Both the position numbers and the translations under genes were made by a program. Shown here one piece after another: positions 1 to 15,825 of a stretch of 15,825 bases of DNA. The notes under the pieces were generated by a model. It saw only the letters and a program-made list of their open reading frames with translations, did no database searches and was not told the DNA's origin. Within the stretch, counting starts at the first letter, position 1, and every line of letters begins with the position of its first letter. The stretch is from a virus (lineage: Duplodnaviria > Heunggongvirae > Uroviricota > Caudoviricetes). Location of the stretch: the IMG/VR virus record IMGVR_UViG_2778261180_000007; one strand, 5' to 3'.

Positions 1-483
1 ATGACGAAGAAAAAAGCACATAAACCTGGTTCAGCGACCATCGCGCTTAACAAGCGCGCCCGTCACGAATACTTTATCGAAGAAGAGTTCGAAGCGGGAC
101 TTGCCCTGCAAGGCTGGGAGGTTAAATCCCTGCGCGCAGGAAAAGCCAATATCAGCGACAGCTACGTCCTTCTGCGTGACGGAGAGGCATTTCTGTTTGG
201 CGCTAACATCACGCCAATGGCCGTGGCCTCCACGCATGTGGTGTGCGATCCTACCCGTACCCGCAAGTTACTTCTCAACCAGCGCGAACTGGACTCATTG
301 TACGGTCGCGTCAATCGAGAAGGCTATACCGTAGTGGCGCTCTCCCTGTACTGGAAAAATGCCTGGTGCAAAGTGAAAATCGGCGTCGCCAAAGGTAAAA
401 AACAGCACGATAAACGTTCAGATATCAAAGAACGCGAATGGCAGGTGGATAAAGCACGTATCATGAAAAACGCCCACCGTTAA
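1..483 (+). CDS. smpB: SsrA-binding protein SmpB
   Basis: 160-aa ORF starting at the ATG at base 1. The translation ([25 protein letters not shown]...) is recognisable as SmpB, and it sits directly upstream of the tmRNA gene as in enterobacteria. Confidence 0.95.
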
Positions 484-697: not shown

Positions 698-1060
698 GGG
701 GCTGATTCTGGATTCGACGGGATTTGCGAAACCCAAGGTGCATGCCGAGGGGCGGTTGGCCTCGTAAAAAGCCGCAAAAAATAGTCGCAAACGACGAAAA
801 CTACGCTTTAGCAGCTTAATAACCTGCTTAGAGCCCTCTCTCCCTAGCCTCCGCTCTTAGGACGGGGATCAAGAGAGGTCAAACCCAAAAGAGATCGCGT
901 GGAAGCCCTGCCTGGGGTTGAAGCGTTAAAACTTAATCAGGCTAGTTTGTTAGTGGCGTGTCCGTCCGCAGCTGGCAAGCGAATGTAAAGACTGACTAAG
1001 CATGTAGTACCGAGGATGTAGGAATTTCGGACGCGGGTTCAACTCCCGCCAGCTCCACCA
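698..1060 (+). ncRNA. ssrA: tmRNA (transfer-messenger RNA, SsrA), 363 nt
   Basis: Starts GGGGCTGATTCTGGATTCGACGGG and ends GGTTCAACTCCCGCCAGCTCCACCA (tRNA-like acceptor/T-arm with CCA). Internal tag reading frame GCA AAC GAC GAA AAC TAC GCT TTA GCA GCT TAA at 787-819 encodes (A)ANDENYALAA. Confidence 0.95.
1038..1060. other. attL core: last 23 nt of ssrA (TTCAACTCCCGCCAGCTCCACCA)
   Basis: A P4-type integrase gene follows ssrA directly, and an imperfect copy of this segment recurs at 12922-12943 at the far end of the P4-like gene set. Confidence 0.4.
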
Positions 1061-1244: not shown

Positions 1245-2444
1245 GTGGCAAGAACGACACGCCCCCTGACCAACACAGAAGTTCTGCGCGCTAAAGCGTT
1301 AGAAAAGGATCTAACGTTGCATGATGGCGATGGTCTTTTTCTGCTCGTTAAAACGAACGGTAAGAAGTTATGGCGTTTCCGTTATCAACGTCCAACAACA
1401 AAGCAGCGAACAATGATGGGGCTAGGTGCATTTCCCGCCCTCTCACTTGCTGACGCCCGGCGGTTAAGAGCGGATTACCTTTCCTTGCTAGCCAACGGAA
1501 TTGACCCGCAAATTCAAGCTGAGATTGTAGAGGAACAGCAACAAATTGCACTGGACAGTATTTTTTCAACAGTCGCCGCTAACTGGTTCCAGCTTAAAAG
1601 CAAAAGCGTTACCCCTGATTACGCGAAAGACATTTGGCGTTCACTAGAAAAAGATGTATTCCCTGCCATCGGTGAGATTCCAGTTCAGCAAATCAAAGCC
1701 CGAATGCTTGTTGAAGCCCTAGAGCCAATCAAAGCACGTGGGGCGCTAGAGACGGTACGTCGTCTGGTGCAGCGCATTAATGAGATAATGATTTATGCCG
1801 TAAACACAGGTCTGATTGATGCCAATCCAGCATCAGGTATTGGGATGGCCTTTGAGAAACCTAAAAAGCAAAACATGCTTACTCTCCGGCCAGAAGAATT
1901 ACCGAAGCTGATGCGTTCTTTAATTATGTCTAATCTATCCGTTCCGACACGTTGTCTTATTGAGTGGCAACTACTGACCCTTGTGCGCCCTTCTGAAGCC
2001 TCCGGTACAAGGTGGGCAGAGATCGATCTCGCAGCAAAGGTCTGGACGATTCCACCCGAACGGATGAAGGCCAAGCGTGAGCACATTGTTCCTCTATCTT
2101 CTCAGGCATTAGAAATTCTGGAAGTAATGAAACCAATCAGTGCTCATCGTGAACATGTTTTTCCCAGTAGAAATGACCCGAAACAGTCAATGAATAGCCA
2201 AACTGCTAATGCAGCACTCAAACGCATTGGTTATGGTGGGAAATTAGTTGCTCATGGGTTACGATCCATCGCAAGTACTGCACTCAATGAAGCCGGATTT
2301 AATCCTGATGTAATTGAAGCAGCTCTAGCACATAGTGATAAAAATGAAGTACGAAGAGCTTATAACCGCTCAACGTACCTTAATAAAAGAATAGAACTTA
2401 TGGCATGGTGGGGAAGGTTTGTTTATAAAACAAACCTTTTATAA
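1245..2444 (+). CDS. int: P4-family tyrosine integrase (site-specific recombinase)
   Basis: 399-aa ORF with a GTG start preceded by AAGGA. N-terminal arm-binding-like region (LHDGDGLFLLVKTNGKKLWRFRYQRP) and C-terminal catalytic signature (AHGLRS ... AHSDKNEVRRAYNRSTY) typical of P4-like integrases. Position directly 3' of a tmRNA gene. Confidence 0.9.
   Translation: MARTTRPLTNTEVLRAKALEKDLTLHDGDGLFLLVKTNGKKLWRFRYQRPTTKQRTMMGLGAFPALSLADARRLRADYLSLLANGIDPQIQAEIVEEQQQIALDSIFSTVAANWFQLKSKSVTPDYAKDIWRSLEKDVFPAIGEIPVQQIKARMLVEALEPIKARGALETVRRLVQRINEIMIYAVNTGLIDANPASGIGMAFEKPKKQNMLTLRPEELPKLMRSLIMSNLSVPTRCLIEWQLLTLVRPSEASGTRWAEIDLAAKVWTIPPERMKAKREHIVPLSSQALEILEVMKPISAHREHVFPSRNDPKQSMNSQTANAALKRIGYGGKLVAHGLRSIASTALNEAGFNPDVIEAALAHSDKNEVRRAYNRSTYLNKRIELMAWWGRFVYKTNLL
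2414..2444 (+). terminator. possible terminator hairpin inside the 3' end of int
   Basis: AAGGTTTG (2414-2421) pairs with CAAACCTT (2431-2438) and is followed by TTTTATAA. The int stop (2442-2444) directly abuts the stop of the convergent ATPase gene (2445-2447). Confidence 0.3.
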
Positions 2445-4142
2445 CTATACTTTAAAGAACTTATTTGTCGAAGATAACTCAAGGATCGAGTTACTCATCA
2501 TCATTTTCATGTCCGCATCTTCTGAAAACTTATCACTTAATATTGACACAATATATTGACCATTTATATTATTTGCTTCAAAAAATATATCTCTAATTTG
2601 ATTCACATCGACATCTTCAATGCTATCATGAATAACAAAAGTAGGTCTCTTTAATTTAATCTTATCCACAAACTTAATATAAGCCAAATCAAATGCAGTT
2701 ATTTCACCTTTCTTCTTGCCGCCATTACTGTTTGGTGTAACGCATGATATATCAAAATTACACTTACCTTTATCAACATCAAAGGAAAGATCAAAAATGT
2801 ATCTTTCCCCATATATTTCCTTTGTAAGATCACCAAAAAACTCATTGAAAATCTCGATGTTTTTTTCCAGACCTTGAACTGCTAACTCTATTTCTAAAAG
2901 TAATTTCTCTCGACTATCTTCAAGAGATTTTATAAGGGCATTTGTATCATTAATACGCGAAAGATTAGACTCTATGCTAGCAAGATTTTCACGTAATTCA
3001 GTAAGCTTATTAAATAATTGATTTATAGACTTTAATGTTTCAGGTTCTTTGATTGTTCTAAATAGGGATGATTCTTGTTCATGAAGATCATTGATTTTTT
3101 TATTTACAGTTTCTATTTCTTCTTTTTTCTTTAACAATTCAGATTCTAAAAAACTGATTTTATTCTTAATAATATCATTATGGAACAATACCATTTCTTC
3201 GTAAGTCCTTTTAAGTTCCCCATTAAAATAAATCCCCGCAGAATTATATATTTCCATTAAATCATTTTCTACAAGTTGTGTGATATTATTCTTCAAGGAC
3301 AAGATCGATTCTTCGATATTTCTTACTCGCATATTTAAGGAGGCATAGCTCAAAGAATAATCACTGATATTCTTCTGTATTTCTGAAAGCTTTTTTAAGC
3401 TTTCATCATGACTATCTTTAAAATCGAAGTTCTTAATATTTCTTTCCGCCTCTGCAATTTCTTTCTTCAGAGGCTTAATCATTTTTGCTAAAACAGTCTC
3501 TCTATTTGGATTCCTGTATGCGGCAAGATATGTCTTTTGTTTTTTTATCTCTTTGTTAAAATCACCTTTTTTCTTTATCAGAGGTAACCCATTGAACCCA
3601 AATAAAAACAAGTATAATAGATCATAGACATCAGGAGTCGTATTCCCATGTAAGAAATTAAGCGTTTTCTGCATTTTATCATTCGTGTTTCTAATAAATT
3701 TATGCGAAACATTCCTCAGTGATGGCTTATCTGTAGTTAACCCAAACACTGCTTGAGCTATAAATTCAGAATATTGTTTCTTATCTACTTCAACATCATT
3801 TAAAAAATATTTTGAATTTTTATCATCAATAGATATTATACGTGAAACAACTGCCTTTTTATTTTCTACCGTATTGAAATCCAATGAAAATTTCAAAACA
3901 TTATTATTAATTAACGATACAATTTCAGGTATATCTTTTCCAAACTCTGCATCATGATAAATATCATGACCTGATGACATAAATAAATAATCTAAAACAC
4001 GCGATAATGTGGATTTACCTACACTATTGCCGCTATCTTTGCCTGATGTTCTTTTATTTACAATTAGATTCAGACCGTCTTTAAACGTCACCTCTCTTAC
4101 AAGAGAGTCATTTTTTAAAATAATAAGTTTATTGAGCCTCAT
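2445..4142 (-). CDS. ABC-type (SMC/RecF-like) ATPase with long central coiled-coil; candidate defence-system ATPase
   Basis: 565-aa ORF. N-terminal strand-plus-P-loop layout (LNLIVNKRTSGKDSGNSVGKSTL, Walker A lysine K43). About 300 aa of heptad-like K/E/L/N-rich sequence. C-terminal signature-like SNGGKKKG followed by Walker-B-like TFVIHDSIEDVD. Start overlaps the upstream gene by 14 nt; GGTGGA lies upstream of the ATG. Confidence 0.75.
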   Translation of the reverse strand: MRLNKLIILKNDSLVREVTFKDGLNLIVNKRTSGKDSGNSVGKSTLSRVLDYLFMSSGHDIYHDAEFGKDIPEIVSLINNNVLKFSLDFNTVENKKAVVSRIISIDDKNSKYFLNDVEVDKKQYSEFIAQAVFGLTTDKPSLRNVSHKFIRNTNDKMQKTLNFLHGNTTPDVYDLLYLFLFGFNGLPLIKKKGDFNKEIKKQKTYLAAYRNPNRETVLAKMIKPLKKEIAEAERNIKNFDFKDSHDESLKKLSEIQKNISDYSLSYASLNMRVRNIEESILSLKNNITQLVENDLMEIYNSAGIYFNGELKRTYEEMVLFHNDIIKNKISFLESELLKKKEEIETVNKKINDLHEQESSLFRTIKEPETLKSINQLFNKLTELRENLASIESNLSRINDTNALIKSLEDSREKLLLEIELAVQGLEKNIEIFNEFFGDLTKEIYGERYIFDLSFDVDKGKCNFDISCVTPNSNGGKKKGEITAFDLAYIKFVDKIKLKRPTFVIHDSIEDVDVNQIRDIFFEANNINGQYIVSILSDKFSEDADMKMMMSNSILELSSTNKFFKV

Positions 4143-4362
4143 ATACTATTCCACCATTTCCATCTAACTCAATTGCGCCGATTATGAAAAGCCAATCTAA
4201 TGAGTAAAGAAAAAGATCAAACGATAACTCGAAGATAGAATTTACTAAATCATACAATCGAGATATTTCAATGACCATTGAATCATTACTTTGAAAGATC
4301 CCAAGCACTACACTTCCAATATATACAGGATTTGCTTTTGGATCCGTATCAATTGTAATCAT
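4129..4362 (-). CDS. hypothetical small protein (77 aa) with hydrophobic C-terminal half; operon member
   Basis: ORF preceded by GGAG with 8-nt spacing. Overlaps both neighbours by 14 nt, indicating coupled translation. Hydrophobic segment FDLFLYSLDWLFIIGAIEL. No family recognised. Confidence 0.5.
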   Translation of the reverse strand: MITIDTDPKANPVYIGSVVLGIFQSNDSMVIEISRLYDLVNSIFELSFDLFLYSLDWLFIIGAIELDGNGGIVYEAQ

Positions 4363-4897
4363 TTGGATTCTCCAGCACTATACATTCGATAATAGCATAG
4401 CTAACAATCATACGAATGCCATAATCAATATCTTCCTGTAAAAACTCTGAATCTAAATTAGAACACGAACTAACTGTTTCTTGAGCAGCTCTAATAACAT
4501 CATCTATAATATTATCCGAGTTTTTCCTTATGAGTTCAATGTTAAATGGTTTCTCATAAAGACCATATAATCCCAATGCAGTATTATAATAACCTCTAAA
4601 CTGTCTTTTCAATTTGACACTACCATTTAAAATTATAGCATCAAGTGTTTTTATGGATTCATCAACTAGCAGAGCATCTTCTTTATAAAGTTCAGCTACC
4701 CATCTGTTTCTTTTAAGATCATTGAATTCTATTTTAACATCAATATTTGATGCTATTCTGTTTAAGTTTTGCTCGCTACCAACTGAATTAGAAATAATTT
4801 CAATTAACTTACCAATAACACTGGCTCTTAACATTCTTGGCTGGTTGTTTATATGCACAGGACCAGTATTATTATTGAAATTAACACCAGAACCCAT
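4349..4897 (-). CDS. hypothetical protein (182 aa); operon member
   Basis: ORF preceded by GGGGG. Starts 3 nt after the stop of the upstream small gene. N-terminus carries an NNNTGPVHINN motif that repeats the C-terminus of the upstream protein. No catalytic motif recognised. Confidence 0.65.
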   Translation of the reverse strand: MGSGVNFNNNTGPVHINNQPRMLRASVIGKLIEIISNSVGSEQNLNRIASNIDVKIEFNDLKRNRWVAELYKEDALLVDESIKTLDAIILNGSVKLKRQFRGYYNTALGLYGLYEKPFNIELIRKNSDNIIDDVIRAAQETVSSCSNLDSEFLQEDIDYGIRMIVSYAIIECIVLENPNDYN

Positions 4898-4899
4898 AA

Positions 4900-5172
4900 T
4901 TACCCCCGATTATCAATATTCACAGGACCATTATTATCTTGAAAATATTGAGAACGCGCTCCTTGATTAATGAAGTTTCTATTAGTTGTAATTTTTACAA
5001 TCTGGGAATTAAGATCATTTATTGTAATGTTAAGTTGTTTTATCTCATTATCTTTCTTGGTTACTTGCATAGTCTGATATATTGCTATACATCCAGAGAT
5101 CACCCCAACAATATATCCAAAGGCACTTACATATTCGTTAGCAAGTAGTGATGCAATCATTTGGAGCTCCAT
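4900..5172 (-). CDS. small membrane-anchored protein (90 aa; 86 aa from the alternative ATG at 5160); first gene of the operon
   Basis: Predicted N-terminal transmembrane helix (IASLLANEYVSAFGYIVGVISGCIAIY) followed by a charged helical stretch. The second in-frame ATG at 5160 has a better-placed GGAG. C-terminus NNGPVNIDNRG. Confidence 0.55.
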   Translation of the reverse strand: MELQMIASLLANEYVSAFGYIVGVISGCIAIYQTMQVTKKDNEIKQLNITINDLNSQIVKITTNRNFINQGARSQYFQDNNGPVNIDNRG

Positions 5173-5429
5173 TTCAAGCTGAAAGATTTAAAGTCACAAC
5201 AATCTCATCCTATTAGGGTAGCTAGGATAGCAACTCATGAAGAGTAAATAAATAGGTATTAATCATTATCGTTTACATGATCTAATTCAACATAGATCCA
5301 CTCATGGCCTCTATACTTTCTCATAAACACAGTGTTTAGCTATGTGGGCTTAAGAGGTCTAAATTGATGTACTTACTTTATCAATTGATATAACCCCAAA
5401 TTATAATCGTTTCATATCATTGACGCGCA

Positions 5430-5448
5430 GTGCTTTCCCCGCCTCGCC
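5430..5448 (-). other. cos site: 19-nt cohesive-end sequence GGCGAGGCGGGGAAAGCAC (minus-strand reading)
   Basis: Plus-strand GTGCTTTCCCCGCCTCGCC is the exact reverse complement of the cohesive-end sequence I recall for P2 and P4. It lies between psu and the cargo operon, where cos sits in an integrated P4. Confidence 0.75.
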
Positions 5449-5548
5449 CGCCCGCTTTGCGGGGCGGTTTTAATGCAGTTGCACTGACACGCTCAGACCG
5501 CGCCGGGAATGGCGCGGTCTGCAGAAAATGAGGCAGGGAAACGCATGC

Positions 5549-5582
5549 AAAGCCATGCACCTTATCGATGCATGGCTTTTTT
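5549..5582 (+). terminator. hairpin plus T-tract between cos and the psu 3' end
   Basis: AAAGCCATGCA (5549-5559), loop CCTTATCGA, TGCATGGCTTT (5569-5579), then a T run. May stop read-through into or out of the late operon; orientation of function uncertain. Confidence 0.35.
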
Positions 5583-5612
5583 CAGTAAAAACGGGCGGAT
5601 TTTCGGGGAATT

Positions 5613-6185
5613 TTACACAGACTGACGTGATGCCAGTTGCGCACTTTTACGCGAAAAAATCATGTTCTGCGCAGGGGTGAATTTTTCACGGCTGTCATCC
5701 ACCGAAGCCGCGTCAGGTCTGAATCCAATGGCCGTTAAAATGTCGCTATCCTGTGCGGAATAATTAATTTTTTCACCCTTCGCAAGCCAGGACAGGAGGG
5801 CTTCACGCAGGGCATCTGTGGCACGCTGTATGGCACAGTTTCGGGCAATGGCCGTCAGCTCACTGTAGCCCATCAGCTCCGGTGCCAGTGCCGCCGCCAG
5901 TGCTGTGCCGTGCTGCTGCATAAAATCATTCAGCCGGTCGCGGATGCTGATGTGCTGAACGGCTTCATGCGAACGAATATAACGACCGGCGGCCTGATTC
6001 ACCTGCCATTTTCTGACTTCGATAATATTGCGTAATTCGTCCAGGCGACTGACGTTTCTGCCTTCTCCTGACAGAAGCCGCAGATATTCCTGTTCGGCCG
6101 CAGCCAGCTCATTTTTGCGTTGCAGCCATGCTGCTTTGTTATTCTGACAGGTGTCAAAGGCCTGCTGTAAGGCTGTGCTTTCCAT
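5613..6185 (-). CDS. psu: Psu (polarity suppression / capsid decoration protein), P4-like
   Basis: 190-aa ORF, the size of P4 Psu, last gene of the sid-delta-psu array next to cos. Sequence MESTALQQAFDTCQNN... recognised as Psu-like. Confidence 0.85.
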   Translation of the reverse strand: MESTALQQAFDTCQNNKAAWLQRKNELAAAEQEYLRLLSGEGRNVSRLDELRNIIEVRKWQVNQAAGRYIRSHEAVQHISIRDRLNDFMQQHGTALAAALAPELMGYSELTAIARNCAIQRATDALREALLSWLAKGEKINYSAQDSDILTAIGFRPDAASVDDSREKFTPAQNMIFSRKSAQLASRQSV

Positions 6186-6258
6186 CGTTATCTCTTTCTC
6201 ATCATGCTGAAGAATAAAAATACGGTGTGCGGCGACGGCCGGTGTTAACCGGCAGCCC

Positions 6259-6759
6259 TCATTCCAGACGCAGCGAATATGATTGTGTTTTTAACCGTAC
6301 TGGCGGCAGTTCCTGTTTTTCATGCAGGCTTTCTGCAAGCTCGTCCGGCGTGACCGGGCGGACAATGAAGCGGTTGATGGTCTGAAGCGTTTTAAACACC
6401 AGACCACAGCCCGGATCCGTGCACACATAAAAACGCTCGGTGACTTCCTGAGACAGACGCCGCGATGTTCTTGACAGTGCAAGGCCTTTACATCTCCGAC
6501 AACAATATCCGGTAACAAGCATTCTTTTCGGGCGTTTCATACTGCCGGAGGCTGACGTCAGTGAATCGCGGTATCTCTGTTTGCCTGAAATGTATTCCAT
6601 TCCTGAATCTTTACTGTCAGAGAAAAAGCTTTCACTCGCTTCAAATGTCGCAGAGCAATAAATATTCCGGCACTGTGCAATCATTATCTTGGTGCCATCG
6701 TCCATGAAATGTGCGCGACGGGTGTGAGCAACATGTCCACACGACGGGCAGTAAATCAT
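6259..6759 (-). CDS. delta: Delta, Ogr/Delta-family zinc-finger late-gene activator (tandem Ogr-like repeats)
   Basis: 166-aa ORF with two Ogr-like units, each carrying CPxCGH...C-x-N-x-x-C(S)ATF-type Cys motifs (MIYCPSCGHVAHTRR...QCRNIYCSATF and ...CRRCKG...CTDPGCGLVF). ATGA overlap with the sid stop. Confidence 0.85.
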   Translation of the reverse strand: MIYCPSCGHVAHTRRAHFMDDGTKIMIAQCRNIYCSATFEASESFFSDSKDSGMEYISGKQRYRDSLTSASGSMKRPKRMLVTGYCCRRCKGLALSRTSRRLSQEVTERFYVCTDPGCGLVFKTLQTINRFIVRPVTPDELAESLHEKQELPPVRLKTQSYSLRLE

Positions 6760-7490
6760 GACAGCAGTCCTCTGGCCTTAAGCTCTGCTCCCTGCTGGTC
6801 TATTTTGTCCTGCCACACCTTGCGCTGTGCCGGTGTGCCTGCCACCTCATAATCCATGTGCGGGAGTGTTGCCGCTGACAGTCCGGTCAGCCGGAGAACC
6901 GGCTCACCGGTGAGGCTGATTTGCATCTGTTTTATTTTCTGTTCCAGCGATGATTTCACCTGCTGCATGACAGCCTTTTCCGGTGCGACGTAGCCCTGAT
7001 GGCCGGTGGTGTTGGCGAGCGGATTTTCCTGTACCAGGATGCTCAGATGCATTGCCCGGACAAGCACCTCACAGGTTTCATTCAGGGCGTGTTCCAGCTC
7101 ATGCTCTGCATACAGACTCAGAAGGTGATGATGTGCCTTCCGGTAGGCGGTGGCCGTGCTGTCACACGCCCCTTTCAGGCGTTCACGTTCAAAATTCAGC
7201 ACCACGGCCAGATTGTCATATTCCTGTACCAGCTCCCGGCGTGCCACGCGCTCAATGTGGCGCTGTTTCAGCTCGTCGCTCAGGACACCACCGGCTGCAC
7301 GAAAGGCCGTGCGCCAGTCGTCAGCGTCGTTTCCGTCGGCCTGCGCCAGCGCATTTTTTTCCTGCTCTGCCCGTTCAATGGCCGTGACGGTCTCATCCAT
7401 CAGGCGGGCGTTCTCAAGATGGGCGGCTCTGGCCTTTTCCAGTTGTGCCAGCGCGGGTTGCAGATATTCAGGGATGGTGTTGTCAGACAT
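6756..7490 (-). CDS. sid: Sid (capsid size determination, external scaffold), P4-like
   Basis: 244 aa from the ATG at 7490, which is preceded by AGGAG (MSDNTIPEYLQPALAQ...). The ORF track's earlier ATG at 7556 lacks a Shine-Dalgarno and would overlap the promoter region. Confidence 0.8.
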   Translation of the reverse strand: MSDNTIPEYLQPALAQLEKARAAHLENARLMDETVTAIERAEQEKNALAQADGNDADDWRTAFRAAGGVLSDELKQRHIERVARRELVQEYDNLAVVLNFERERLKGACDSTATAYRKAHHHLLSLYAEHELEHALNETCEVLVRAMHLSILVQENPLANTTGHQGYVAPEKAVMQQVKSSLEQKIKQMQISLTGEPVLRLTGLSAATLPHMDYEVAGTPAQRKVWQDKIDQQGAELKARGLLS

Positions 7491-8309: not shown

Positions 8310-8896
8310 TGATGCCCGCTCTGCAAAAACTCCCTTTTTCTGGCTTGCCTTTTTCCGGCATTTGCGGATATAGTTTTTCCGTTGCCGCAAAATCGGCAGC
8401 CGGGCGTGAGAACCCGTGTAACTCGAAGGCGACATATGACGCGCCATGCGTCTTTTTTTGTGTCGCAATCAACGCCACAGAGCGCCAGATTATGGTGTGG
8501 CGTGTGGTTTGCCGTGCAGGTATGATCCTGTTCGCAATCGCATGTTATGCCACTGAGTCAATGGTAGCTCAGGCGGGGCAGCCTCCGGGCTGGCCGGTAT
8601 TCTTCGAGGCCGGTATTCTCACCCCCGTCTGGGCTATCGCCATCGAGCGTGAGAACTCCGGCGATAGCAGTTATTTGCTACTCGAAGGAGGCTGCCTTAT
8701 GGCTACAACCCTTACCCCCTCACACCCTGAATTTGTCTTTGTGTTTGCGGCTGTCCGTCGCGCAGACCGTCATCCCCGTATCTGTATGCTTCGCACCGTC
8801 GCCGGTGATGAACGCAGTGCCCGCCGTTCCCTTGTCCGTGACTATGTGCTCTCCCTTGCTGCCCGTCTGCCGGTGGTGGAGGTGTCCCGTGCGTAA
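8306..8896 (+). CDS. eta: eta-like long ORF (194-196 aa, three consecutive ATGs) enclosing kil and spanning the immunity region
   Basis: Open frame from an ATGATGATG start that overlaps the vis stop (ATGA). Matches my recollection of P4 eta: about 197 codons, three candidate start codons, kil nested in the same frame at the 3' end. Coding status itself is uncertain. Confidence 0.4.
8345..8374 (+). promoter_or_regulatory. candidate early promoter (PLE-like)
   Basis: TTGCCT (8345-8350), 18-bp spacer, TATAGT (8369-8374); alternative -10 GATATA with 16-bp spacer. Lies just upstream of seqA. Confidence 0.3.
8406..8687 (+). promoter_or_regulatory. P4-type RNA immunity region: seqA (8406-8428), seqB within a candidate CI RNA (8602-8622), seqC (8649-8687)
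   Basis: seqA GTGAGAA...CTCGAAG and seqC GTGAGAA...CTCGAAG are each complementary to seqB CTTCGAG...TTCTCAC (reverse complement GTGAGAAtaccggcCTCGAAG). seqC runs into the GGAGG Shine-Dalgarno of kil. Confidence 0.45.
8699..8896 (+). CDS. kil: Kil-like small protein (65 aa)
   Basis: ATG at 8699 preceded by GGAGG that overlaps seqC. 65 codons, the size I recall for P4 Kil. Shares frame and stop with eta. Confidence 0.5.
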
Positions 8897-10094: not shown

Positions 10095-12428
10095 ATGAAA
10101 ATGAACGTAACCGCCACCGTCAGCCATGCACTCGGCCACTGGCCGCGTATTCTCCCGGCGCTGGGGATTCAGGTGCTGAAAAACCGTCATCAGCCCTGTC
10201 CGGTCTGTGGCGGGAGTGACCGCTTCCGTTTTGATGACAGGGAGGGGCGCGGCACCTGGTACTGCAATCAGTGTGGTGCCGGTGACGGCCTGAAACTGGT
10301 TGAAAAGGTGTTTGGTGTTTCCCCGTCCGACGCGGCCGCAAAGGTGGCTGCCGTGACCGGCAGCCTGCCCCCGGCTGACCCGGCAGTGACGGCCGCCGCC
10401 GGTGCTGAAACAGACGCTGCCCGGAAGAACGCCGCCGCACTGGCACAAACCCTGATGGCAAAAACCCGTCCCGGAACCGGTAACGCCTACCTGACCCGCA
10501 AGGGCTTTCCCGGCCGGGAATGCCGGATGCTGACCGGCACACACAGAGCCGGTGGCGTGAGCTGGCGCGCCGGTGACCTTGTGGTGCCACTGTATGACGA
10601 CAGCGGCGAACTGGTTAACCTTCAGTTAATCAGTGCTGACGGCCGTAAGCGCACCCTGAAAGGCGGACAGGTCAGGGGCACCTGTCACATCCTTGAAGGA
10701 CAGAATCAGGCCGGAAAACGTCTGTGGATAGCGGAGGGATACGCGACCGCACTTACCGTGCATCACCTGACCGGTGAAACGGTGATGGTGGCGCTTTCTT
10801 CCGTGAATCTCCTTTCTCTGGCCAGCCTTGCCCGGCAGAAGCATCCGGCCTGTCAGATTGTCCTTGCTGCTGACCGTGACCTCAGCGGTGACGGCCAGAA
10901 AAAAGCCGCCGCAGCCGCAGATGCGTGTGAAGGTGTTGTTGCCCTGCCGCCGGTCTTCGGTGACTGGAATGATGCCTTCACGCAGTACGGCGGGGAAGCC
11001 ACCCGTAAGGCCATTTATGATGCCATCCGGCCACCGGCTGAAAGCCCGTTCGACACCATGAGCGAAGCGGAGTTTTCCGCCATGAGTACCAGCGAAAAGG
11101 CCATGCGTATCTATGAGCATTACGGCGAGGCGCTCGCGGTTGATGCCAACGGCCAGCTTCTGTCCCGTTATGAAAATGGTGTCTGGAAGGTGCTGCCACC
11201 ACAGGACTTTGCCCGGGATGTGGCCGGGCTGTTTCAGCGGCTGCGCGCGCCGTTCTCCTCCGGGAAGGTGGCCTCCGTGGTGGACACCCTGAAGCTGATT
11301 ATTCCGCAGCAGGAAGCCCCCTCCCGCCGCCTGATTGGCTTTCGTAACGGCGTGCTCGACACGCAGAACGGCACGTTCCACCCGCACAGTCCGTCACACT
11401 GGATGCGCACCCTGTGCGATGTGGATTTCACCCCACCGGTGGAAGGGGAAACGCTGGAAACCCACGCCCCCGCGTTCTGGCGCTGGCTTGACCGTGCCGC
11501 CGGTGGCCGTGCGGAAAAACGCGACGTGATTCTGGCCGCACTGTTTATGGTGCTGGCAAACCGCTATGACTGGCAGCTCTTTCTGGAGGTGACCGGTCCC
11601 GGCGGAAGCGGCAAAAGTATCATGGCCGAAATAGCCACCCTGCTGGCCGGGGAGGATAACGCCACGTCGGCCACCATTGAGACGCTGGAATCCCCGCGTG
11701 AACGTGCCGCGTTAACTGGCTTCTCACTGATACGCCTGCCGGACCAGGAAAAATGGAGCGGCGACGGAGCCGGACTCAAGGCCATCACCGGCGGCGATGC
11801 AGTGTCCGTTGACCCGAAATACCGGGATGCGTACTCCACGCACATCCCGGCGGTGATTCTGGCCGTGAACAATAACCCGATGCGCTTCACCGACCGCAGC
11901 GGCGGCGTGTCACGCCGGCGGGTGATTATTCACTTCCCGGAACAGATAGCCCCGCAGGAGCGCGACCCGCAACTTAAGGACAAAATCACCCGCGAGCTGG
12001 CGGTCATCGTGCGTCACCTGATGCAGAAGTTCAGCGACCCGATGCTCGCCCGGTCACTGCTTCAGTCCCAGCAGAACTCAGACGAGGCACTGAACATCAA
12101 ACGGGATGCCGACCCGACGTTTGATTTTATCGGCTATCTGGAAACCCTGCCGCAGACCAGCGGCATGTATATGGGGAACGCCAGTATCATCCCGCGTAAC
12201 TACCGTAAATACCTCTATCACGCCTATCTGGCCTACATGGAGGCAAACGGCTACCGGAATGTACTCAGTCTGAAAATGTTCGGGCTGGGGCTGCCGGTGA
12301 TGCTGAAGGAATACGGGCTGAATTACGAGAAGCGCCATACCAAACAGGGGATACAGACCAACCTGACGCTGAAAGAGGAAAGCTACGGCGACTGGCTGCC
12401 AAAATGTGACGACCCTGCAACAACCTGA
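10095..12428 (+). CDS. alpha: Alpha: P4-type primase-helicase replication protein
   Basis: 777 aa, the size of P4 alpha. AGGAG Shine-Dalgarno. N-terminal zinc motif CPVCGGSDRFRFDD...CNQCG. Toprim-like EGYATAL and AADRD. Helicase Walker A VTGPGGSGKS. Iteron arrays lie on both sides. Confidence 0.9.
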   Translation: MKMNVTATVSHALGHWPRILPALGIQVLKNRHQPCPVCGGSDRFRFDDREGRGTWYCNQCGAGDGLKLVEKVFGVSPSDAAAKVAAVTGSLPPADPAVTAAAGAETDAARKNAAALAQTLMAKTRPGTGNAYLTRKGFPGRECRMLTGTHRAGGVSWRAGDLVVPLYDDSGELVNLQLISADGRKRTLKGGQVRGTCHILEGQNQAGKRLWIAEGYATALTVHHLTGETVMVALSSVNLLSLASLARQKHPACQIVLAADRDLSGDGQKKAAAAADACEGVVALPPVFGDWNDAFTQYGGEATRKAIYDAIRPPAESPFDTMSEAEFSAMSTSEKAMRIYEHYGEALAVDANGQLLSRYENGVWKVLPPQDFARDVAGLFQRLRAPFSSGKVASVVDTLKLIIPQQEAPSRRLIGFRNGVLDTQNGTFHPHSPSHWMRTLCDVDFTPPVEGETLETHAPAFWRWLDRAAGGRAEKRDVILAALFMVLANRYDWQLFLEVTGPGGSGKSIMAEIATLLAGEDNATSATIETLESPRERAALTGFSLIRLPDQEKWSGDGAGLKAITGGDAVSVDPKYRDAYSTHIPAVILAVNNNPMRFTDRSGGVSRRRVIIHFPEQIAPQERDPQLKDKITRELAVIVRHLMQKFSDPMLARSLLQSQQNSDEALNIKRDADPTFDFIGYLETLPQTSGMYMGNASIIPRNYRKYLYHAYLAYMEANGYRNVLSLKMFGLGLPVMLKEYGLNYEKRHTKQGIQTNLTLKEESYGDWLPKCDDPATT

Positions 12429-13458: not shown

Positions 13459-15825
13459 TCAGCGGTGAACCCCCGTTAACGATGCATACGGCGTCAGGTT
13501 CCAGTTACCATCGGTAAATCGCATCCCGGTTTCAATGTGACCGCCCAGCCCGTTGCTGCGATAACTGCCGTTGGCGGCTCCACCGCTGCCAACCGTGGAG
13601 TCGCGAGCTTCGGTACCTGCTAATACCAATAAATTACCGCCATTTTCCAGCAACATATTGGTCGCTAAATTGCCGGAAATGGAAAAAGTGCCGTACTGGT
13701 GAGTACCGCTGATTTCAATACCGTTAGCCGTGCTCGTCTGGAGAGCGGCACCGCTGTTCTGGACGATATCTGTCGCTTTGCCATTATCGTTAACTGTCAG
13801 CGTACCGCCTTCATTGATCTTTGTTTTTATTGCCTCTCCGTTAGCTGAAACTGTTTGTATTCCGCCGTCGTTAATCGTTGTCTCATTCGCCACCCCCTCG
13901 ACGATTTGTTCGCCGCCGGTGAGCGTCGTGCCTGTCGCAGTGGCTTTTGTTTTGACGATCTCCCGTCCGCCCGTATTGACCTGTGTTTTGTCAGAAGAGG
14001 TGTCTGACTCCATGGTTAACACGCCGCCATTTGCCAGCAGGATATTGTTCGCCGCACCCTGCTCGATGCTGAACGCGACGCCATCCGCGCGTGTTCCTGT
14101 GACCCGCGTCGCCCTGGTGGTTGCAACCAAAGCGTCCTGGCTACTCTGCTGTATCCCCGTTGCGCTGCCTTTCTCCCGCACATCGAGTGTGCCGCCGTCA
14201 TTAAGCACCGAGTTTTCAGCCAGACCGCCCTCATTAACTACCTGTGAACACCCATTAATAATGGAACCTTCCGCTGTCCCGTTTGCCATAATTTGTTGTA
14301 GGCCAGAGACGATATCGGTATTGATTGCCTTACCATAATTCTGAACGGTTTGCGTGCCACCATTGATGTGTGTTTTCTCTGTTGACCCACCATCAACAAT
14401 TTGTTCACCACTTTCGATATTTGCCTCAGTGGCTAATCCATATACCGTTTGCTTGCCACCTTTGATATTTGCTTTATCAGAAGTGGCACTGGCATATATT
14501 GTTTGGGTGCCAGCACTATTGAGTACAGTGCCAACATCTTTTCCATAAACATCCATTTTGCCGTTGGCATTAATAATCGTATCAACTGCCCGGGAACCAG
14601 TGACGACTGTTAATGAGCCAGCGTTTTCCAGCACTACATTTTTAGCTTCTGAATTCCTGATGTAGAAAGCATCACCATAACTGTTGGTTCCTTCGATAAG
14701 GGTTCCGGAAGTTGTGGAAGCAATTAATGCGCCGCCGGATTGTTGCTCAACATGCTTAGCCTCACCACCGTCCTGAACCTCCAGAACGCCACCATTATTA
14801 AGTCTGGTGGTATCTGTTTTAGCCTCCTTCTGGGCAATCAGCTTACCGCCAGCATCAACGGTAGTATTTTTCGCCGAGGTTTTAGCCACTACCGTCAGTT
14901 CGCCGGTATTTTCCAGCACAACATAATTAGCCTCCCCTCCGGTAATAGTGAAGTGAGAGAGCTTGTTGTATCCTTCAATATCAGTCCCTGCGCCCGTGTT
15001 GGCAACTAAAGCACTGCCCGTCTCCTGGTTAACCCCATGTGCAATACCACCGGTATAGACAATCAGCGAGCCTCCGGCGCTAATATTGCTGCCAGTTGCC
15101 GTACCATCTTTCTCAACAACCTGCCGGCTCCCGGAGGATATAATTGTCGTGTCAGCTTTCCCGCCGCTCTTGATATTTTGCGTTCCGCCGTTGATATTGG
15201 TACCCGTGGCAATACCATGATTATTAATATTCTGTGTACCACCATTGATTATGGTATTGGTCGCGTTTCCGGTAACATCCATTACCCCGCCGTTATCTAT
15301 TCGGGTCGCATCAGCTTTAGCATTCGTTAAAACTGACATTGTTCCTTTATCTTTAATAATCGTCTTGTTTGCCGAACCATATGCGTTTATGTCTAAATGA
15401 CCACCGTTTTCCAGCAACACATTGTCTGCCACGTGATTGTGGATGGAGAATGCACCTTCACTATTCGTACCGCTCACCGTCGTACCGTTAGTGTTTGTTT
15501 TTAAAATTGCACCATCGTGCTGGGTAACATTTGTTGCCGTACCACCACTAACATCAAGCACGCCACCGGAATAAACTTCAATAACATCCGAGGAGCTGGT
15601 GTAATCAACAATTTGCGTACCACCAGAATAGATCTGAGTATTTTTTGCCGTTGACTTATTATTCAGAGACTGAGTTCCACCTTCAATCGTCGTGTCCAGC
15701 GCATGGCTTTCATATACTCTTTGCTCACCGCCATTTTTAATGGTGGTTGTTCCTACTGTGCTCTGTTCAACAGTAACCGGCTCATTTAAACCGTCTGGTC
15801 TGTTTCCTCCGGCTCTACAAAAATA
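13459..15825 (-). CDS. AIDA-I/Ag43-type autotransporter adhesin, passenger region (5'-partial; continues beyond the window end)
   Basis: Reading frame is open from the window edge (15825) down to the stop at 13459-13461. Dozens of G/T/N-rich ~19-aa beta-helix repeats (e.g. INGGTQNI, TIINGGTQ, VLENAGSLTVV). The ORF track's GTG at 15561 is not the true start. Confidence 0.8.
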   Translation of the reverse strand, partial: YFCRAGGNRPDGLNEPVTVEQSTVGTTTIKNGGEQRVYESHALDTTIEGGTQSLNNKSTAKNTQIYSGGTQIVDYTSSSDVIEVYSGGVLDVSGGTATNVTQHDGAILKTNTNGTTVSGTNSEGAFSIHNHVADNVLLENGGHLDINAYGSANKTIIKDKGTMSVLTNAKADATRIDNGGVMDVTGNATNTIINGGTQNINNHGIATGTNINGGTQNIKSGGKADTTIISSGSRQVVEKDGTATGSNISAGGSLIVYTGGIAHGVNQETGSALVANTGAGTDIEGYNKLSHFTITGGEANYVVLENTGELTVVAKTSAKNTTVDAGGKLIAQKEAKTDTTRLNNGGVLEVQDGGEAKHVEQQSGGALIASTTSGTLIEGTNSYGDAFYIRNSEAKNVVLENAGSLTVVTGSRAVDTIINANGKMDVYGKDVGTVLNSAGTQTIYASATSDKANIKGGKQTVYGLATEANIESGEQIVDGGSTEKTHINGGTQTVQNYGKAINTDIVSGLQQIMANGTAEGSIINGCSQVVNEGGLAENSVLNDGGTLDVREKGSATGIQQSSQDALVATTRATRVTGTRADGVAFSIEQGAANNILLANGGVLTMESDTSSDKTQVNTGGREIVKTKATATGTTLTGGEQIVEGVANETTINDGGIQTVSANGEAIKTKINEGGTLTVNDNGKATDIVQNSGAALQTSTANGIEISGTHQYGTFSISGNLATNMLLENGGNLLVLAGTEARDSTVGSGGAANGSYRSNGLGGHIETGMRFTDGNWNLTPYASLTGVHR

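Follow-up and report, generated by a model that had tools for sequence, protein, structure and literature searches.

P4-like phage satellites possess a hotspot for defence genes, located between psu/cos and int, which was described by Rousset et al. 2022 (PMC9122126) together with a proposed route for the exchange of its contents, in which cos ends are joined and one homologous recombination completes the swap (PMC9122126). Rapid swapping of the defence cargo has been documented in a 2026 survey in Nucleic Acids Research (NAR; PMC13586616), in which a text search for breakpoints gave 0 occurrences. The subject of this work is one such hotspot in the IMG/VR virus record IMGVR_UViG_2778261180_000007, a stretch of 15,825 nucleotides (nt) that is called here, at its full length, the window. 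The element that it holds is a P4-like phage satellite integrated at the ssrA gene of Escherichia coli, and its cargo is, to judge from the profile matches, an ABC-3C/Lamassu-like defence operon in the psu/cos-int hotspot. The integrase gene, int, converges on this operon and ends stop to stop against the gene of its ATPase.

Systems of the ABC-3C kind were reportedly described by Krishnan and colleagues in 2020. Convergent bacterial genes can share terminator hairpins (bidirectional intrinsic terminators) and, in the core genes that flank hypervariable loci, the sequence next to the variable block is swept along with it by homologous recombination. Against this background the locus is an ordinary member of the known P4 hotspot with a known class of defence system, the abutment of int and the ATPase gene is an ordinary compact edge of that hotspot, and hairpins between convergent genes are known too. 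What is modestly new is the mapping of the edges, which indicates that the C-terminus of the integrase lies in the swapped block. The reading favoured here, and on balance a probable one when taken as a whole, is that the cargo was exchanged by a swap joined at cos and closed by a crossover in int, leaving a compact junction with a hairpin that acts on the int-sense RNA.

The two edges of the swapped block

On the side of psu the variable block stops abruptly. More than 2000 E. coli genomes become homologous to the window from 5410-5424 onward. In 12 other loci, with ten cargo types, no relationship is visible before (G)CGCGCA, directly left of a 19-mer that matches the P2/P4 cos sequence exactly (0 matches expected by chance) and that we take to be the cohesive end; all of them converge on (G)CGCGCA|GTGCTTTCCCCGCCTCGCC. 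The block hence ends 6-7 nt from the cos 19-mer, a limit much sharper than the one in int. The 60 nt that include cos (5424-5483) also match unannotated places of many E. coli chromosomes, often about 5 kb from the start of the record; these additional matches could represent the cos sites of other satellites or of P2-like prophages.

The comparison comprised 14 sister loci of E. coli elements with other cargo, of ten types, which include Hachiman, NACHT, SIR2, AAA+DUF4435, kinase/PP2C, restriction enzyme, AAA+HNH and SEC-C systems at the same position. As expected for the psu-int hotspot, the gene set varies among otherwise homologous elements and the homology returns at cos. The gap between int and cargo ranges in these elements from 0 to 250 nt and the cargo lies in either orientation; therefore, the hotspot as such does not impose a zero gap.

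At the other edge the limit of the block is found within int. A comparison with 5,426 complete genomes of E. coli found this int together with its cargo, at 99% identity or more, in 28 of them, and in the other 333 that match, the int match extends only up to window position ~2350-2415. When same-cargo elements of other genera are aligned with the window, identity is 72-80% over int 2205-2324 and rises abruptly to 93-98% from ~2325, and an identity of 85-98% continues through the cargo for the relatives whose ATPase is at least 90% identical. For two metagenome contigs with an ATPase of 82-83% identity (L035, L036) the last bin, 2385-2444, is only 73-75% identical to the window. The E. coli alleles with other cargo have 53-90% identity to it in 2320-2444, and among alleles of different cargo the mean pairwise identity, 95% near ssrA, has dropped to 77% at 2325-2384 and to 45% at 2385-2444. 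With a GC content of 0.37 and 0.30, the two terminal bins of int come near the cargo. The remainder of int is a mosaic: positions 1245-1900 show 93-100% identity in most 60-nt bins to the E. coli alleles L002, L004 and L005, and positions 2140-2319 are 97-98% identical to L003.

The position of the step is not constant. L034 and L023, with cargos about 98% identical, share high identity for about 240 nt into int and then drop to 45-77%, and L002 and L007 have in common the int tail and about 100 nt past the int stop before they diverge. Counted from the int stop, one pair or another thus has its breakpoint near -240, -120 or +100 nt. Since the identity steps differ among pairs, the breakpoints are variable and mostly inside int, and neither they nor the gaps of 0-250 nt show the single breakpoint, whatever the cargo, that a cassette with a fixed insertion point would have. 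The preliminary description of this DNA had regarded the junction as the precise breakpoint of the cassette and had named variable breakpoints in other elements as a finding that would speak against it. That is what the comparison of elements gave, and the proposal is refuted; the Pfam and PADLOC matches do support a cassette containing an ATPase gene beside a P4-type integrase.

The stretch of int beyond the step contains a His codon at 2331-2333, the putative catalytic Tyr codon at 2361-2363 and a conserved WWG at 2406-2414, after which the window has a cargo-specific tail of nine codons, RFVYKTNLL. Tails after WWG measure 5-16 amino acids (aa), differ in sequence and length by cargo, and have become shorter through point mutations in L037 and L024/L030-34; to all appearance the tail is clearly dispensable and tolerant of change. 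The alignments thus indicate that the last 120-240 nt of int, approximately, or 40-80 codons with the catalytic His and putative Tyr codons among them, are co-inherited with the cargo, that the position of the crossover inside int varies from pair to pair, and that the exchanged unit, which has one limit 6-7 nt from the cohesive end of cos, comprises the cargo and reaches into int.

A sharp edge at cos combined with a wandering crossover in int is in keeping with what Rousset et al. 2022 proposed (PMC9122126). Two elements would be joined, or cut, at compatible cos ends, and one homologous crossover would take place in the nearest shared backbone, which is the 3' region of int.

Several junctions of the same cargo are decayed. 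In L026 (Photorhabdus) an int remnant from ~2340 only is found beside the cargo, together with an inverted primase fragment; in L024 (Enterobacter sp.) the 5' sequence of int is lost, window position 1147 being joined to 1980; and in L033, from a metagenome, an insertion sequence (IS) with a 593-aa transposase open reading frame (ORF) lies inside int, about 200 nt from the stop. The int 3' end is still attached to the cargo in all three. L033 was considered as a swap onto an unrelated integrase and discarded, its break being the IS insertion in int and not a recombinant int. Two same-cargo pairs, L006/L039 (identical throughout) and L003/L037 (uniformly about 90%), were uninformative for breakpoints. 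The int of L023 (Siccibacter) has an insertion of 27 nt (9 codons) some 120-180 nt upstream of the stop, which resembles a tandem duplication of the adjacent GA(A/G)GCGGGCTTTGATGCTGATGTTATC. A Chi site at the Trp-Trp codons (TGGTGG) was rejected as a crossover hotspot: the exact GCTGGTGG occurs nowhere in the window and the alleles reach only 7/8. These codons (window 2406-2413) give Chi-like octamers with 7/8 matches, ACTGGTGG in L006 and L009 and CATGGTGG in the window, oriented for entry of RecBCD from the cos end.

The stop-to-stop junction and its hairpin

The preliminary description had noted that the int TAA immediately adjoins the reverse-complement stop of the ATPase gene, with no intergenic space, and that a hairpin in the last int codons is the only terminator candidate. 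The first point is confirmed by the letters, the ORFs and the RefSeq annotation, and the second holds near either gene end in a consensus scan, an inverted-repeat search and RNA folding. The int ORF (ORF list and letters) has a GTG start and ends with TAA at 2442-2444, and the CTA at 2445-2447 is TAG, the stop of the 565-aa ATPase, on the minus strand, so that the gap is 0 nt; in identical copies RefSeq places int at 4001-5200 and the DUF2326 protein at 5201-6898. Both are true gene ends, because profile matches reach near both termini: the NF007246 match covers int residues 1-396, and ATPase residue 564 of 565 aligns at position 138 of 141 of the DUF2326 profile (Pfam).

In every complete same-cargo junction found, which come from at least four other named genera and from metagenomes, the gap is 0 or 3 nt. 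It is 0 nt in the window and in L022, L023, L025, L029, L035 and L036, that is, in Kosakonia, Siccibacter, Tatumella, one IMG/VR contig and the two metagenome contigs with ATPases of 82-83% identity. It is 3 nt in L024 and L030-34 (Enterobacter sp., three IMG/VR contigs and two metagenome contigs), where a TTA-to-TAA change has made int one codon shorter. Being kept down to 82% ATPase identity, with differing tail sequences, the abutment is ancestral to the DUF2326 cargo lineage and is not a matter of chance. The simplest reading would be compaction in a satellite genome whose size is limited by the capsid. The int reading frame enters the cargo-linked DNA and continues to the first stop, which in this cargo lineage abuts the ATPase stop or lies 3 nt from it. 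In another E. coli element (L038, 4695-4700) the int stop abuts the start of a co-directional AAA ATPase gene (TAG followed by ATG) with zero gap and no hairpin, which suggests that this ATPase is co-transcribed with int.

The hairpin arms are AAGGTTTGTTT (2414-2424) and AAACAAACCTT (2428-2438). Among perfect inverted repeats of at least 11 nt whose arms are separate and whose loop is short, it is the sole one in the 15.8-kb window. On the plus strand the RNA of 2405-2455 folds with -16.5 kcal/mol, which 1 of 200 shuffles matched (z -4.5); the minus strand gives -10.7 kcal/mol, and in a regional scan (z -3.7) 0 of 100 dinucleotide shuffles were as stable. A T-rich side (CCTTTTATAA) exists on the plus strand only: the 8 nt after the stem are TTATAACT (4 T) on that strand and CCCCACCA (0 T) on the minus strand, and a GGGG before the stem on the plus strand makes the minus-strand RNA read CCCC after it. 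The A-tract before and T-tract after the stem that distinguish a bidirectional terminator are thus missing from the window hairpin; the corresponding AAA...TTT arrangement is present at the sister junctions L003 and L011. Apart from the hairpin, nothing resembling a terminator turned up in the consensus scan around the junction, whichever the strand (the nearest plus-strand site is at 4092), and within int (1245-2444) the minus strand has no site downstream of the ATPase stop. Rfam gave no family at the hairpin, only sub-threshold chance matches.

The same-cargo variants with an ATPase of at least 90% identity keep the hairpin, at -12.6 to -16.6 kcal/mol on the plus strand, and in L035 it is replaced by a different one of -14 kcal/mol. 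Hairpins that are unusually stable (at most 1 shuffle as good) and unrelated in sequence occur at 9 of the 11 loci where int and another cargo converge and at 0 of the 3 co-directional ones. In L008, too, the hairpin lies within the int tail, spanning -36 to +5 about the stop, and that of L011 overlaps the int stop. This recurrence at convergent junctions and absence from co-directional ones argues for a terminator or insulator in the int sense, and the window hairpin is probably, with moderate to low confidence, a weak int-sense terminator, an insulator or a 3'-end stabiliser. Since the stem overlaps the last nine codons, it would form only without a ribosome on the int stop. An origin of the hairpin as an ancestral cargo terminator was discarded, the native, non-P4 loci of Oleispira and Methylophilaceae (49-50% identity) having on inspection neither homologous sequence nor an obvious hairpin downstream.

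On the int-sense RNA the hairpin would limit int transcription that runs antisense through the 1.7-kb ATPase gene. Because the U-rich 3' side is on the int strand only, the cargo operon has no visible intrinsic terminator, which makes antisense read-through into int possible; transcription of the operon probably either is ended by Rho or continues into int as antisense RNA.

Alternative explanations

Several points weigh against the favoured reading. The breakpoints were mapped on about 25 loci that do not form a systematic sample, we infer the cos-joining step from the sharp edge alone, and conservation is slightly higher in the 3' block of int than in the cargo, so that extra constraint besides linkage is possible. 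Intrinsic terminators have a G+C-rich stem and at least 5 U in 8 nt, where the hairpin has 3 G-C pairs in 11 and 4 T, and the consensus scan does not call it at 2414-2438. No compensatory covariation was found in the stem among same-cargo relatives; L022 has an uncompensated G.G mismatch, L036 lacks the hairpin and the T-run is weaker in L030-34 (CCTTTAATAA). Two A-to-G changes (L025, L034) that leave a G.U pair only on the int-sense RNA were rejected as evidence for the strand, a test that is uninformative because 9 of the 11 possible transitions in the right arm are wobble-compatible on the plus strand by composition. The failed terminator consensus, the lack of compensatory changes, the mismatched and hairpin-less relatives and the unconserved U-tract would agree with a hairpin that has no function, either a by-product of the junction event (for example, a template-switch or quasipalindrome copy of the conserved GRFV codons) or chance in AT-rich DNA, the abutment being compaction; its left arm consists of semi-conserved int codons (G-x-F/Y-V) and its right arm lies in the unconstrained tail. 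This explanation is nevertheless unlikely in view of the contrast between convergent and co-directional loci, of the place of the only perfect 11-bp hairpin of the window exactly at the gene ends, and of the substitute hairpin in L035.

Could the hairpin serve the cargo instead, as a 3' stabiliser after Rho termination or processing, or as a bidirectional terminator for both genes? On the minus strand it starts 6 nt past the stop of the ATPase gene and still folds, is co-inherited with the cargo and is followed by a C-rich, G-poor stretch (CCTTCCCCACC). That strand, however, has no T-run after the stem, its fold is the weaker one and is disrupted by the L025 and L034 substitutions, and in L027 and L028, distant non-P4 ABC-3C homologues, inspection of the sequence shows no comparable hairpin after the ATPase stop; a cargo-side role is quite improbable. 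As for the view that the int stop is the precise breakpoint of the cassette and that zero-gap convergence exists to couple cargo and integrase by transcriptional interference, it would account for abutting stops without an independent terminator on either strand, for an arrangement conserved across genera, and for a cargo strand where the absence of a U-tract after the hairpin makes antisense read-through into int plausible. It is highly improbable in the face of crossovers that lie on either side of the int stop and never at it, and of the variable gaps and orientations of other hotspot cargos. A related proposal, that each cargo of the hotspot brings its own integrase C-terminus, with the catalytic Tyr region and the tail, and its own junction hairpin, and that a zero-gap operon lacking a terminator and reading antisense through int tunes excision and integration according to the cargo carried and the strength of its transcription, appears very doubtful; within it, the inhibition of Rho by P4 Psu could raise the read-through in the late phase. 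The swap at cos with a crossover in int, a compact junction and an int-sense hairpin remains preferred.

Other features of the satellite and its cargo

The features of the window are collected in Table 1. Both the P4-like core genes and the cos and C4 sequences by which such satellites are recognised are present, and Phage_AlpA and Phage_ASH are recorded at loci identical to the window. Rfam places the P4 immunity RNAs C4 at 8557-8644 (74 bits), c4-a1b1 at 8368-8420 and isrK at 8381-8458; the RNAs at 8368-8644 mark an intact P4-like immunity region. The sid-like ORF has no Pfam match. In strain 2013C-4974 (L001 9512-10156) this gene is truncated by IS3, and it is intact in the window; an otherwise identical element therefore exists in an intact and an IS-disrupted form. 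Beyond the alpha primase lies a 700-aa ORF for an AIDA-type adhesin (13459-15561, minus strand; Pfam). No repeat of the ssrA 3' end that could serve as attR was found elsewhere in the window, and either the island extends past the window or attR has been lost.

The block between int and cos has 28-33% GC and four genes on the minus strand. Its 182-aa protein is assigned as effector mainly because of its position in the operon, and no significant family was found for the 90-aa protein in profile searches. The same cargo occurs beside a P4-type int in Kosakonia, Siccibacter, Enterobacter, Tatumella, IMG/VR contigs and metagenomes. Alternative genomic contexts were sought for the exact ATPase protein, and 10 of the 10 places listed had the same ssrA-int-cargo arrangement.

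Table 1. Coordinates of the features in the window, with the strand and the basis of each assignment.
Feature	Position	Strand	Basis or remark
smpB, chromosomal flank gene	1-483	+	ORF; RefSeq annotation of identical locus
ssrA tmRNA (transfer-messenger RNA), satellite at its 3' end (attL side)	698-1060	+	ARAGORN; Rfam RF00023, 295.8 bits
P4-type tyrosine integrase, 399 aa, mosaic	1245-2444	+	Pfam Arm-DNA-bind_3, Phage_int_M, Phage_integrase; NF007246, E 5e-176
Apparent cargo-linked int 3' block	2320-2444	+	90-98% per 60-nt bin against same-cargo elements (ATPase >=90%)
Perfect 11-bp inverted repeat, 3-nt loop, int codons 390-398	2414-2438	+	Candidate int-sense terminator/insulator
Stop-to-stop abutment	2442-2447	int TAA (+), ATPase TAG (-)	Letters; RefSeq; kept in relatives
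ABC-3C/Lamassu-like SMC-type ATPase, 565 aa	2445-4142	-	Pfam DUF2326, E 1e-17; PADLOC PDC-M68B, E 1e-45, and LmuB, E 4e-16
ABC-3C middle component 6 (MC6), 77 aa	4129-4362	-	Pfam PF20293, E 4e-13
182-aa protein, probable ABC-3C effector	4349-4897	-	Weak Pfam CTD10 (ABC-3C), E 0.004, below cut-off
90-aa protein, first gene of the cargo operon	4900-5172	-	ORF; hypothetical in RefSeq
AT-rich cargo-specific non-coding stretch, variable block ending ~5423	5173-5423		Homology start, cos-side alignment
cos, 19-nt cohesive-end sequence	5430-5448	-	Exact match
psu, P4 core gene flanking the hotspot	5613-6185	-	Pfam Psu, E 8e-89
delta	6259-6759		Pfam Ogr_Delta
sid-like ORF, 266 aa	6756-7556		RefSeq name 'glycoprotein 3'
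alpha primase	10095-12428		Pfam Toprim/D5_N/Pox_D5

Implications and comparison with known systems

The locus offers a picture of the exchange of defence cargo at the level of nucleotides, with one edge pinned 6-7 nt from cos and the other wandering in int. This is the pattern predicted by the proposal of cos ends plus one crossover (PMC9122126), and it provides a concrete way to test that proposal. It would also follow that the 3' ends of int are not independent markers of the satellite lineage, and that a clone of a 'native' cargo that begins at the int stop may sever the junction hairpin.

The closest described system is the psu/cos-int hotspot of P4 itself (PMC9122126, PMC13586616), with which the locus shares its position, a variable region of low GC, a defence system and many unrelated sister systems; it differs in nothing of kind, and the mapping of the edges to the nucleotide is what is added here. 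The cargo resembles the ABC-3C/Lamassu SMC-ATPase systems in its DUF2326 ABC/SMC-like ATPase with a coiled-coil region, in an MC6 gene that overlaps the ATPase gene by 14 nt and in a small upstream protein with a weak CTD10 match, and it differs from them in that no LmuA- or LmuC-type partner was recognised and a 90-aa gene is additional. As beside other hypervariable loci, where gradients of diversity are found, the identity of int alleles drops toward the variable locus and int is built of mosaic blocks; unlike there, the gradient is one-sided and the other flank stops abruptly at a phage packaging site. With the shared terminator hairpins of convergent bacterial genes the junction has in common a stable stem-loop between converging genes that recurs at sister junctions, but here one of the two genes contains the AT-rich stem within its coding sequence, and only one strand offers a U-rich tail. 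Hence, the hairpin could be no more than a weak terminator that works in one direction and is sensitive to translation.

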